17,929 nucleotides of DNA from a virus (Duplodnaviria; Heunggongvirae; Uroviricota; Caudoviricetes). Position numbers and translations under genes: made by a program. Shown here piece after piece: positions 9,657 to 11,424 of this stretch. The stretch is from IMG/VR virus record IMGVR_UViG_2548876946_000015, positions 1-17,929 of that record, one strand, 5' to 3'. The notes under the pieces were generated by a model. The model did no database searches. It had not been told where the DNA came from and was given only the letters and a program-made list of their open reading frames with translations. The number at the start of each line of letters is the position of its first letter. Position 1 is the first letter of the stretch.

Positions 9657-10295
9657 TTAATTGCGAATGGAATCGCGGAACTCTTTGCTTGATAGAAAAG
9701 GATCTGTTCTCCTTAACTCATCATAGTTTTTATTAAACTTTCTTGCTTCACCTGGGTATCTGTTGAACAAAACATTGCAGAAAAAAGAGAGCAATAACTC
9801 ACATATGAATGCTAATACCCTGAAAAATAAAGGTATAAAAAGAAGGGAAGGTTCATTGAAGTCTCTATTCCAAACAAAATAGACAATCATCCCGACATAC
9901 CAAATTGATATCCCTATACTGATGATTGTTCCAACAGAGGTAACTACGATCCCGATTAAGTCGGACAGTCTGTTTGCCAGTAACTCATTTGAGTATCTTG
10001 CAATCATATACCGCCAACATTTTGCAATATCATCCTGATCTGTAGAGTCTTCTGGAATAGCTAGGCTTCTACATATTGAAGTAGCTCTTTTTTTCTCAAC
10101 TCTTTTTGAGAGCCATCCATTAAAGAGATACATCAACACCTGCGTTGCTATTCCTGCACCAAGTGATATCAAAGACATCCCCAAAAATCGCCATCCTGGA
10201 GATAGTGACTGGTACTGCCAAACAAAAAAAATTAAAAAACCCAATGAGCCTATGACATAGGCTGATGTATCGCTATATATATCTATTTTTTTCAT
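9657..10295 (-). CDS. Integral membrane protein with four predicted TM helices, 212 aa; candidate superinfection-exclusion (SieA-position) protein
   Basis: Start preferred at ATG 10295 (MKKIDIY...) because AAGGAG lies 10 nt upstream; the ORF-track extension to 10430 has no RBS and runs through operator-like repeats. Four long hydrophobic segments. Visibly AT-rich compared with the flanking late genes. Convergent with the gp16-like gene, at the locus where P22 carries sieA. Confidence 0.5.
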   Translation of the reverse strand: MKKIDIYSDTSAYVIGSLGFLIFFVWQYQSLSPGWRFLGMSLISLGAGIATQVLMYLFNGWLSKRVEKKRATSICRSLAIPEDSTDQDDIAKCWRYMIARYSNELLANRLSDLIGIVVTSVGTIISIGISIWYVGMIVYFVWNRDFNEPSLLFIPLFFRVLAFICELLLSFFCNVLFNRYPGEARKFNKNYDELRRTDPFLSSKEFRDSIRN

Positions 10296-10363
10296 TGAGT
10301 AGCCACTCCTTAGTTTTGAGCAGGATACCAGATGATAATGTGTAGTTGGAGTAGCGCGGTTGT

Positions 10364-10397
10364 AATGCAAGCATTTTGTTTTAGTTTTATGCTTGCT
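10364..10397. repeat. Operator-like inverted repeat IR1 (AATGCAAGCAT ... ATGCTTGC)
   Basis: AATGCAAGCAT at 10364-10374 and its reverse-complement core ATGCTTGC at 10389-10396, separated by 14 bp, in the divergent intergenic region. Confidence 0.45.
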
Positions 10398-10422
10398 TGT
10401 ATGTGTGTACAGTGTATATAAT
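10393..10422 (+). promoter_or_regulatory. Candidate sigma70 promoter for the 322-aa gene
   Basis: TTGCTT (10393-10398), 18-bp spacer, perfect TATAAT (10417-10422). The -10 element and predicted transcription start overlap IR2. Confidence 0.4.
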
Positions 10423-10455
10423 GCAAGCATACATCACAACAAAGGTGCTTGCATT
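10420..10455. repeat. Operator-like inverted repeat IR2 (AATGCAAGCAT ... TGCTTGCATT)
   Basis: Second copy of the 12-bp TAATGCAAGCAT at 10419-10430 (first copy at 10363-10374) with an inverted partner TGCTTGCAT at 10446-10454, ending 1 nt before the ATG at 10456. Confidence 0.45.
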
Positions 10456-11424
10456 ATGACTGAAAAGAAAAGTGGCGAAGGGAAAGCTAAGGGCGGGATC
10501 GCTCGCGCAAAGTCGCTGACTAAAGAGCAGCGTTCTGAAATAGCAAAGAAAGCAGCTGCTGCAAGATGGAAAAGTAAGATTCTCAGGGCAACTCATCGTG
10601 GTAACTTTTTAGATGATTTTGGCATTGACGCTGAATGTTATGTACTGGATGACGAGTCGAAAACTGTCGTTGTTACGAAAACTGGATTATCTCAGTTGCT
10701 AGGGATTGGTGAACATGCCAGGGATTTAGATCAACTGCTTGGCGCTCAGTATATGAGCAAATACCGAGATCTAGAATTGCAGCGAAAAATGGAAAATCCC
10801 TATAAATTTCAACTTACTTCGAAGTCTAAAACCGTTCATCAAGCGTTAGGTTATGACATTACAGCAATTGTTGATATTGGTAGGGCACTAATAGAAGCCA
10901 AAGATAATGACGATCTACCACAATCACGGTTAAAGGCAGCCGCCGCAGCACAGAGACTTATTAATGCCTCCGCTAAGGCGGGAATTAAGGGGGTTGCGTA
11001 TGCGCTTGCTGGTTATCGTCCAGAAGTTCAGGCTGTCATTGACGAGTTCAAAGCGTTTGTTCGTGAAGAGGCTCGTCAATATGAAAAGGAATTTCCAGAT
11101 GAGCTATACGAGGAGTGGTATCGACTGTACGGCCTGAATAGGCCAGAGAAAGGACGGCCTATTCGTTTTGGGCAGCTAACCAACATGCAGATATATACCC
11201 CGCTAGCAAAGAGCAAAGGTAAAATTCTTGAACAGATTCGAGCCAGCCGAGACGAGAACGGAAAACAATCTGATAAGTTGCATCTGTTCCTTTCTGAAAT
11301 TGGTGTCAAGGCTTTGCGTCAGCATATCGGTAAGCTTCTTGGTGTCGCAGCGATGAGTGAGACAAGAGAAGAATACGAAAAAGGAATAGAAAAGGTTTTC
11401 GGAAGAATGAAACCAGAAATCTAA
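10456..11424 (+). CDS. Hypothetical accessory (moron) protein, 322 aa; basic N-terminal segment; function unknown
   Basis: Start preferred at ATG 10456 (MTEKKSGEGKAKGGIARAKSLTKEQRSEIAKKAAAARW...) with AAAGG 8-9 nt upstream; the track's 10393 start lies inside the promoter/operator region. Lys/Ala-rich N-terminus followed by a segment (CYVLDDESKTVVVTKTGLSQLLGIGEHARDLDQLL) loosely reminiscent of KilA-N/Bro-N-type folds. Ends at a strong terminator. Confidence 0.6.
   Translation: MTEKKSGEGKAKGGIARAKSLTKEQRSEIAKKAAAARWKSKILRATHRGNFLDDFGIDAECYVLDDESKTVVVTKTGLSQLLGIGEHARDLDQLLGAQYMSKYRDLELQRKMENPYKFQLTSKSKTVHQALGYDITAIVDIGRALIEAKDNDDLPQSRLKAAAAAQRLINASAKAGIKGVAYALAGYRPEVQAVIDEFKAFVREEARQYEKEFPDELYEEWYRLYGLNRPEKGRPIRFGQLTNMQIYTPLAKSKGKILEQIRASRDENGKQSDKLHLFLSEIGVKALRQHIGKLLGVAAMSETREEYEKGIEKVFGRMKPEI

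Follow-up and report, generated by a model that had tools for sequence, protein, structure and literature searches.

The interval between the gene-16 homologue and the tailspike gene of a P22-like Escherichia coli prophage raises a simple question: do the two divergent genes found there work together, or are they neighbours by chance? The interval lies in a stretch of 17,929 nucleotides (positions 1 to 17,929 of IMG/VR virus record IMGVR_UViG_2548876946_000015, the window from here on), part of a prophage that measures ~45 kb in full. Exactly two genes are located between the gene-16 homologue (7803–9635, plus strand) and the tailspike gene (~11700–13940, plus strand), i.e., a minus-strand gene for a membrane protein and a plus-strand gene for a protein of 322 amino acids (aa) belonging to the P63C family. 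An original prediction, made from the letters of the DNA, had placed the pair at the P22 sieA/immI hot spot, which is correct, and had read it as one two-gene module for superinfection exclusion or abortive infection, a reading that is not supported. We consider it highly probable instead that the locus consists of a type B sieA and a self-contained, self-regulated P63C cassette, that is, of two independent single-gene accessory cassettes (“morons”) that would abut by chance in this prophage.

By the distribution of the two genes alone, the two-component system is already largely refuted. We surveyed 5,426 complete E. coli genomes, counting the P63C cassette at a coverage of at least 80%, and 80 IMG/VR loci with a P63C homologue (58–100% identity), in which a SieA was sought within 3 kb. 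The type B sieA was present in 21 of the genomes and the P63C cassette in 46, the joint interval being found in only two; at the viral loci any SieA lay within 3 kb in 2 of the 80. Individual cases show both genes with other partners. E. coli HS and the O111:H- strain 110512 carry the type B sieA followed by mnt/arc/ant-type genes, and the P63C gene is absent, while in strain elppa4 a type A SieA adjoins an identical P63C protein (WP_000136767.1). A 77%-identical Salmonella homologue is found beside a type A SieA at one locus (L015) and beside an unrelated lipoprotein at three others (L016–L018), in phage vB_EcoP-611R6 the neighbour is a single-transmembrane (TM) coiled-coil protein, and at two more loci (L019 and L020) no gene was called to the left of the P63C gene. 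By megablast against phage vB_EcoP-611R6 and E. coli prophages, the mobile P63C segment has its left boundary at 10306 and its right one at ~11454–11470, and takes in the inverted repeats and the first of two terminators. The variation among otherwise syntenic P22-like prophages that had been proposed as a check is thus found, with both the left-hand neighbours and the presence of the P63C gene differing. The features of the interval, with the evidence for each, are the following.

9657–10295, minus strand: sieA, type B, for a 212-aa inner-membrane superinfection-exclusion protein (assigned from translation, PHROG 7745, BLASTP, near-identity to HS1, hydropathy and motif)
10306–10337, minus strand: ribosome binding site (RBS) of sieA, AAGGAG (10306–10311), and -10-like hexamer TATCAT (10332–10337) (alignment with the upstream DNA of P22 and HS1)
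10365–10454, plus strand: operator-like array of the P63C cassette, in which the 10-bp palindrome ATGCwwGCAT is present four times (conservation across homologue cassettes)
10393–10422, plus strand: predicted sigma-70 promoter of the P63C gene (manual reading and conservation)
10456–11424, plus strand: gene for the P63C-family protein, 322 aa (translation, Pfam PF10546 and phrog_2384)
11429–11455, plus strand: intrinsic terminator belonging to the P63C cassette, AAACCCACC-TTCA-GGTGGGTTT with a T run after it (folding and mobile-segment boundary)
11505–11531, plus strand: second intrinsic terminator, conserved and of P22 type, 5' of the tailspike gene (terminator scan, folding and identity to P22)

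The membrane and the 322-aa proteins could in principle form one divergent, co-regulated exclusion or abortive-infection system with shared operators, an explanation that we find very improbable. The genes are indeed adjacent and divergent in the window prophage and in E. coli EC31, both sit in an accessory hot spot, and the left-hand slot in other P22-like prophages is often occupied by an envelope protein (SieA-A, the lipoprotein or the single-TM protein). However, P63C and SieA are paired in no more than the two genomes and two viral loci already mentioned, and the SieA of HS1 gives full exclusion alone (PMC10883804). Close P63C homologues keep the operators where no membrane gene diverges from them, namely 3' of cI, between Q and the holin gene and at the ends of prophages, and within the spacer the repeats are on the P63C side, whereas the sieA-proximal DNA matches the upstream DNA of the P22 and HS1 sieA genes. 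The claim of a divergent unit with shared operators is not supported by these observations, the repeats travelling with the P63C gene alone. That of superinfection exclusion stands in part: the locus does appear to encode an exclusion protein, SieA-B, but the two-gene module fails the co-occurrence test. The P22 immI slot of this prophage holds no new two-component module for exclusion; exclusion itself is real and already published as type B sieA, and its unrelated neighbour is a member of a catalogued family. As a physical description the original prediction is partly confirmed and as an interpretation partly supported, and the finding as submitted is an ordinary one. What residual interest there is concerns the P63C cassette with its conserved array of operators.

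A type B sieA in the gene 16–tailspike slot

The minus-strand open reading frame (ORF) at 9657–10295 codes for 212 aa from an ATG at 10295–10293 that is preceded by AAGGAG, the mechanically called ORF reaching to 10430. With a GC content of 36.6% vs 48.4% in the structural genes, and with four hydrophobic segments by Kyte-Doolittle hydropathy (at ~aa 10–27, 37–57, 112–141 and 148–177), the AT-rich four-TM protein and its foreign composition are as had been described. This protein had been thought impossible to assign to a named family, and the slot to hold none of sieA, mnt, arc and ant. Both statements are wrong for this gene; the second is right for the other three. The protein matches PHROG 7745 (“superinfection exclusion SieA-like”) with E = 1.6e-20 and the SieA of P22 by BLASTP with 28% identity over 148 aa (E = 2e-24), in an alignment that begins at its residue 44 and at residue 14 of the P22 protein, i.e., with an offset of 30 residues. 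The SieA motif FxRYPxEAxxFNK is present as FNRYPGEARKFNK at aa 177–189. Above all, 211 of the 212 residues are identical to those of the gene in the sieA slot of the E. coli HS prophage HS1, the sole substitution being L62I. The HS1 gene is located on the opposite strand directly 3' of the gene-16 homologue, a position and orientation shared with the window gene. Judged by its sequence, the membrane protein is a type B SieA, an exclusion protein that is already published.

The DNA 5' of the gene points in the same direction. The RBS is followed by GGTATCCTGCTCAAAAC and then by the -10-like TATCAT, an order kept in the upstream DNA of the P22 and HS1 sieA genes, and in the alignment of the three the string GGT.T.CTGC.CAAAACTAAGGAG is invariant. 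The P22 promoter PsieA is annotated at the position equivalent to this hexamer, and we infer sieA promoter activity at TATCAT 10332–10337. Other searches were less informative. The protein matches no family of PADLOC-DB v2.0.0 at E ≤ 1, a database in which SieA apparently has no model, and its Pfam matches are only noise; the latter result is uninformative because the Pfam copy used lacks the SIEA model and P22 SieA itself went unmatched. The profile searches that had been suggested for the two proteins were of mixed yield, identifying SieA (PHROG 7745) and P63C (PF10546), with PADLOC matching neither protein.

HS1 is the prototype of type B SieA (Leavitt et al., 2024, mBio, PMC10883804). This type has a ~30-residue N-terminal extension and one extra TM segment, the motif FxRYPxEAxxFNK being common to all types (PMC10883804). 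When the HS1 sieA was placed on its own in the Salmonella chromosome, together with 106 bp of upstream DNA, the exclusion of P22, L, MG40, MG178 and LP7 was complete, and the protein was indistinguishable in behaviour from P22 SieA (PMC10883804). SieA is found in the inner membrane and blocks DNA injection, and escape mutations map to the ejection proteins gp16 and gp20 (PMC10883804). Because the window protein is one residue apart from HS1 SieA, the same function and mechanism can be provisionally assigned to it: the SieA-B made by the prophage would reside in the inner membrane and block DNA injection by superinfecting P22-like phages, probably through interference with the conduit formed by gp20 and gp16.

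The window gene and the HS1 gene have in common the slot, the orientation, the ~30-aa N-terminal extension with its extra TM segment and the motif FxRYPxEAxxFNK. However, the upstream neighbour in HS1 is a helix-turn-helix gene with an ant-type module and in the window it is the P63C cassette, and only ~50 bp of proximal upstream DNA are shared. The type A SieA of P22 is homologous, is also an inner-membrane protein, occupies the same gene 16–gene 9 slot and has the RBS-proximal upstream sequence conserved, but it has 164 aa and three predicted TM segments compared to 212 aa and four in the type B of the window. The type B gene also reveals a gap in the RefSeq annotation. It is labelled “hypothetical protein” in 21 of the 21 complete E. 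coli genomes that carry it, and the same label applies to all the named members listed from the 189-member SieA-B cluster (WP_021575669.1, WP_000717773.1). The exact sequence is present on 935 contigs. The name could simply be assigned.

Other small envelope proteins are found at the sieA position, left of the P63C cassette, in other P22-like prophages. One of them is a 161-aa lipoprotein (L016:3412–3897, minus strand; MKKSLLIIPLLLAGC...) with a classic lipobox, another a 134-aa single-TM coiled-coil protein (L001:4665–5069, minus strand), both free of Pfam family matches. Either could represent an alternative exclusion protein.

The P63C cassette and its palindromes

The plus-strand ORF (10456–11424) is, as had been described, a gene for a 322-aa protein with a basic N-terminus, rich in lysine and arginine, and the protein corresponds to RefSeq WP_000136767.1. 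Its N-terminal basic motif reads KGGxARAxxLTxEQRxxIAKKAAxARW and is followed by a beta-rich domain at ~aa 42–135 and by a helical C-terminal region with the Pfam P63C domain at aa 199–286 (PF10546; 52.7 bits vs a cut-off of 26.1, E = 6.8e-14). The domain takes its name from the C-terminus of p63 of the Myxococcus phage Mx8. The family phrog_2384, whose function is unannotated, spans the whole protein (E = 1.7e-104), and NCBIfam gave no above-threshold match. The P63C family is large: 1,682 matches at E < 1e-5 in a database clustered at 90%, and 3,114 clusters at 50% identity (E ≤ 1e-3), in which the complete matches have ~320–350 aa and run end-to-end on the profile. The protein is helical, and no catalytic motif is seen among the invariant residues. 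ORF23 of phage ST104 and NP_049495 of phage 933W, both of the same family (PF10546/PHROG 2384), share the full-length architecture with the window protein; ST104 orf23 has the same upstream palindrome array as the window, and the 933W member a different repeat motif. The annotated start of ST104 orf23 (L007:2417–3496) looks 36 bases (12 codons) too far upstream; the N-terminal motif and the position of the palindrome array make the ATG at L007:2453 the likely true start.

The single-sequence AlphaFold2 (AF2) model of the 322-aa protein was unusable (predicted local distance difference test, pLDDT, of 40), whereas the alignment-based one has a mean pLDDT of 73.8, with 84–92 in the beta-rich domain at aa 42–135. 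The protein has no sequence relative in the PDB and the AF2 model no convincing fold match there. Foldseek matches in BFVD are weak (E ≥ 2.6e-3), the named ones among the top 30 being mostly Bro-N, Ant N-terminal or “repressor domain” proteins. A Leminorella prophage (locus L110) encodes a fusion of KilA-N and P63C, which together with the weak matches to Bro-N and Ant-N is compatible with a modular protein composed of an N-terminal DNA-binding domain and a P63C domain.

The P63C gene is a self-contained cassette, with a predicted sigma-70 promoter, the gene and its own terminator, that is autonomous across prophage slots. In the P22-like slot (gene 16 to tailspike) we found it with or without mnt-arc-ant. 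In Klebsiella lambdoid prophages an 80%-identical homologue is located immediately 3' of cI, with the same four sites and diverged spacers, and the 29%-identical homologue of phage ST104 (orf23) is also immediately 3' of cI. Cronobacter lambdoid prophages (L024–L026:2318–4945) have on one strand the CI repressor, a 253-aa BstA homologue (KilA-N plus BstA_C) and the P63C gene, the cassette being stacked, within the immunity region, next to a gene of known abortive-infection function. An Enterobacter homologue lies between the Q antiterminator and the holin, and that of 933W in the nin region, adjoining roi. Leminorella has an island inside its cluster of tail genes, flanked by those for the tail chaperone and the tape measure (L110:2931–6963), made up of the KilA-N+P63C fusion (251 aa), a Bro-N protein, a 320-aa P63C gene and a DUF6694 protein. 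Finally, P63C cassettes also occur at prophage ends. Across hosts, phage types and insertion sites, the palindromes are the only constant besides the gene itself.

These palindromes lie in the 160-bp spacer between the two genes (10296–10455), where the two inverted repeats of the original prediction are indeed present, at 10367–74/10389–96 and at 10418–29/10446–57, the latter with 12 of 12 bases complementary. The core 7-mer GCAAGCA/TGCTTGC occurs four times in the window, always within 10366–10453. The repeat arms are in turn 10-bp palindromes ATGCwwGCAT, at 10365–74, 10389–98, 10421–30 and 10445–54, which make two inverted pairs with 23–24 bp from site start to site start. In homologues a tally of the -10 hexamer, in which distal and proximal site pairs are mixed, gave a pair spacing of 22–23 bp. 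Palindrome 2 holds the best -35 candidate, TTGCTT (10393–98), which an 18-bp spacer separates from a perfect -10, TATAAT (10417–22). Palindrome 3 overlaps this -10 and the predicted transcription start (~10429–10431), and palindrome 4 adjoins the ATG start codon, with its final base (10454) 2 bases upstream. The 5' untranslated region includes a conserved TCACAAC (10434–40) and the RBS AAAGG (10441–45), and the homologue cassettes again show a TAnnAT hexamer directly beside palindrome 3. Copies of ATGCwwGCAT would therefore overlap the -35, the -10, the predicted transcription start and the start codon.

The conservation of the array is marked. In homologues from Klebsiella, Serratia, Cronobacter, Enterobacter and Salmonella (62–85% protein identity) the sites are kept at ~-87, -65, -32 and -9 from the ATG, with unrelated flanks and with fully diverged spacers between sites. 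Among 79 viral loci, which gave 55 distinct upstream sequences, at least two exact core 7-mers are found at fixed positions in all 55 and all four in 28, over a background of 0.13 core sites per kb in the same loci, i.e., an enrichment of ~180-fold. The array persists 5' of ST104 orf23, at only 29% aa identity, and in the Burkholderia phage Bups phi1. The 933W homologue (27% identity) has three copies of ACGTGCA/TGCACGT (L008:2880–2920) where the main clade has ATGCAAGCAT, and its leader keeps the TCACAAC element; this change of motif is possibly a switch in the specificity of protein and operator. A search of the 45-kb prophage in full gave no further cluster of ATGCwwGCAT. The inverted repeats belong to the P63C cassette alone and not to sieA.

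Invariant arms, free spacers and the absence of compensatory changes speak for a sequence-specific binding of protein to DNA rather than an RNA hairpin. The P63C protein is the sole factor that accompanies the sites everywhere, and for this reason we infer that it binds the palindromes and represses its own promoter. Its basic N-terminal motif and beta-rich N-domain would mediate the binding to DNA, and autorepression would give a low constitutive expression of P63C in the lysogen.

Some points weigh against this interpretation of the locus. On the side of sieA, the HS gene ECHS_RS01600 was equated with the EcHS_A0321 of the published work by position and properties, without a direct mapping of locus tags. 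On the side of P63C, the consensus promoter scan called neither promoter of the spacer, that of P63C being missed because its -35 matches at only three of six positions, and both this promoter and its start are predictions. The literature searched yields no functional study of any P63C protein, and the defence hidden Markov models (HMMs) fail to match this one: no PADLOC model does so at E ≤ 1, and nothing relevant was found for three distant P63C homologues either. Since the arms never vary in the main clade, the evidence for the P63C protein as binder is its co-travel with the sites and the one switch of motif in 933W, and a conserved host factor is a possible binder. If transcription started farther upstream, the proximal repeat could also fold in the mRNA and mask the start codon (-17.5 kcal/mol).

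That the repeats are sites for such a conserved host factor, or RNA hairpins controlling translation of the P63C mRNA, seems to us improbable. The proximal repeat folds strongly as RNA (z = -3.9 for the value just given) and would bury the RBS and the AUG, and with arms that are invariant covariation cannot tie the specificity to the protein within the main clade. However, the same invariance, together with the free spacers and the lack of compensatory changes, favours recognition by a protein over RNA pairing; given the predicted -10 at 10417–22 the left arm lies outside the transcript; the folding of the distal pair is weak (z = -1.8); and each arm is itself a 10-bp palindrome, typical of dimer sites. 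In addition, the sites persist from Escherichia to Burkholderia phages and the motif switches in the divergent 933W homologue.

One natural variant of the array deserves mention. A Salmonella prophage (L016:3898–4000) has a 56-bp deletion exactly between direct repeats TAATGCAAGCAT, with which palindromes 1 and 2 and the -35 region are lost and the proximal pair alone is retained. The deletion looks repeat-mediated and should alter the expression of the P63C gene.

Possible roles of the P63C protein

The contexts in which the cassette is inserted (neighbouring sieA, cI or bstA, in the Q-holin slot, or at prophage ends) make an accessory or defence function expressed by the prophage the likeliest role. 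In the likeliest case the P63C protein acts alone in this function and not as a partner of SieA; an accessory, possibly defensive, function of the P63C product on its own is at this stage a speculative proposal. Two rival explanations can be weighed, one based on defence and the other on regulation.

By analogy, the protein might be a single-gene abortive-infection or defence protein of the BstA kind, which we regard as possible though unlikely. It would then consist of a KilA-N/Bro-N-like N-domain and a C-terminal effector, and the DNA sites at its 5' end would be those of an autoregulator and at the same time a self-recognition element, comparable to aba. BstA of the BTP1 prophage, with its aba self-immunity element (Owen et al., 2021, PMC8585504), is like P63C a single-gene prophage-expressed cassette of ~310–320 aa. 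In each, a putative DNA-binding domain at the N-terminus is joined to a helical C-domain, and a conserved stretch of DNA covers the 5' end of the gene, aba also spanning the start codon (PMC8585504), but the C-terminal Pfam domains differ (P63C in one, BstA_C in the other). The ST104 and Klebsiella homologues fill the exact slot of BstA just 3' of cI, that of Cronobacter directly adjoins a BstA homologue, and the cassette, as an autonomous unit with its own promoter and terminator, is found in several accessory-gene slots. The BFVD matches are enriched in Bro-N and Ant-N proteins, and the fusion of KilA-N and P63C exists. When the P63C and BstA families were compared with hhalign the alignment was colinear over 166 columns (E = 0.0017), but with a probability of only 15% (48 P63C-family vs 34 BstA-family sequences), and pairwise BLASTP was not significant. 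The PADLOC model of BstA matches the BTP1 protein (1.9e-124) but neither the window protein nor ST104 orf23 (E ≤ 1). In addition, aba elements are homologue-specific whereas the P63C sites are nearly invariant across the family, and the co-occurrence with BstA speaks against a simple functional equivalence. Homology of the P63C protein to BstA was not established by BLASTP, HMM or hhalign.

The regulatory version, which we consider unlikely, takes the protein as a phage transcription regulator or antirepressor-like factor that would act on lysis-lysogeny, on other prophages or on host genes, and not in defence, the P63C family being grouped with the domain-shuffled regulators of Bro-N, KilA-N and Ant type. 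The position of the gene would suit it, in the immI region that is the usual place of ant and, in 933W, beside roi in the nin region. The same can be said of the fusion or adjacency to KilA-N and Bro-N proteins, of the sequence-specific operator-like sites combined with a basic N-terminus, and of a helical protein without catalytic motif among its invariant residues. However, the sole cluster of putative sites in the 45-kb prophage is at the P63C gene's own promoter, and the cassette is inserted at sites too diverse for a core role in regulation. The gene also coexists with complete mnt-arc-ant modules in many phages, indicating that the P63C protein is no replacement for Ant.

Returning to the P63C gene as an independent cassette, the family as a whole could be, as a tentative and rather doubtful extrapolation, a large unrecognised class of single-gene, autorepressed prophage proteins for defence or abortive infection that follow a BstA-like logic. 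If this were true, the class would comprise ~3,100 clusters at 50% identity, nearly all of them ~320-aa proteins with one architecture, in which a KilA-N/Bro-N-like N-domain would read DNA, the P63C domain would be the effector and the invariant four-palindrome array at the 5' end of the gene would serve as operator and possibly as self-recognition element. We found no description of the P63C cassette or of its operator array in the literature searched. It is a tractable lead, as a very widespread prophage gene, located repeatedly in slots of defence or lysogenic conversion, and with a strikingly conserved four-site array.

Terminators and neighbouring genes

Two strong tandem terminators had been predicted to insulate the locus from the tailspike gene. 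The terminators are real, each a hairpin with a T run, with folding energies of -14.9 kcal/mol (z = -3.1) for the first (placed at 11429–11452 within the feature 11429–11455) and -14.5 kcal/mol (z = -3.3) for the second (at 11505–11524 within 11505–11531), the latter found by the terminator scan; the insulation is not expected during lytic growth. The first terminator can be assigned to the P63C cassette because it is inside the segment that moves with the gene. The second is the conserved one of P22 between ant and gene 9: DNA similarity to P22 starts only at 11471, and the region 11471–11699 of the window is 93% identical to the stretch between ant and gene 9 where the ant terminator is annotated. 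In P22 the late transcript that serves gene 9 is antiterminated and crosses the terminator region. By analogy, both terminators would be expected to limit the transcription of the cassette itself in the lysogen and not to shield the tailspike in lytic growth. Deletion of sieA has been reported to ensure a robust tailspike synthesis after induction (PMC10883804), indicating that the region from sieA to the tailspike affects late read-through.

In phages other than the P22-like ones, a GC hairpin and T-run (…GCGGCCTTTTTTT) very often immediately precedes the P63C cassette, for example at L011:3880–3905. It presumably terminates the transcription unit upstream (that of cI), and its recurrence there points to a favoured site of insertion or to a boundary that the cassettes have in common.

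The immI region of P22 occupies the same hot spot, between gene 16 and the tailspike gene, and shares with the window the 93% identical DNA upstream of the tailspike; it carries mnt, arc, ant and sar, whereas all four are absent from the window prophage, as judged from its ORFs and from the comparison with P22 DNA. No Rfam family was matched, the scan of 9400–11800 giving only sub-threshold terminator-like matches.

Between the tailspike and the integrase genes, on the minus strand, there is another AT-rich block (13966–16394), with 34% GC and some 400-bp windows falling to 30%. It contains a GDSL-type esterase/lipase (13966–14661), a small ORF (14746–15024) and an acyltransferase (15354–16394), and it resembles an O-antigen acetylation (lysogenic conversion) module, located at the usual position of gtr in P22, beside intS and a tRNA-Arg. 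In the same prophage, outside the window, the region 3' of the repressor gene (L107:34710–36787) codes for a DUF3024 protein, a hypothetical protein and a serine/threonine protein kinase, and farther along there is an annotated “superinfection exclusion protein” (L107:38332–38643). The kinase/DUF3024 block and this annotated protein suggest that the prophage carries several other candidate genes for exclusion or defence.

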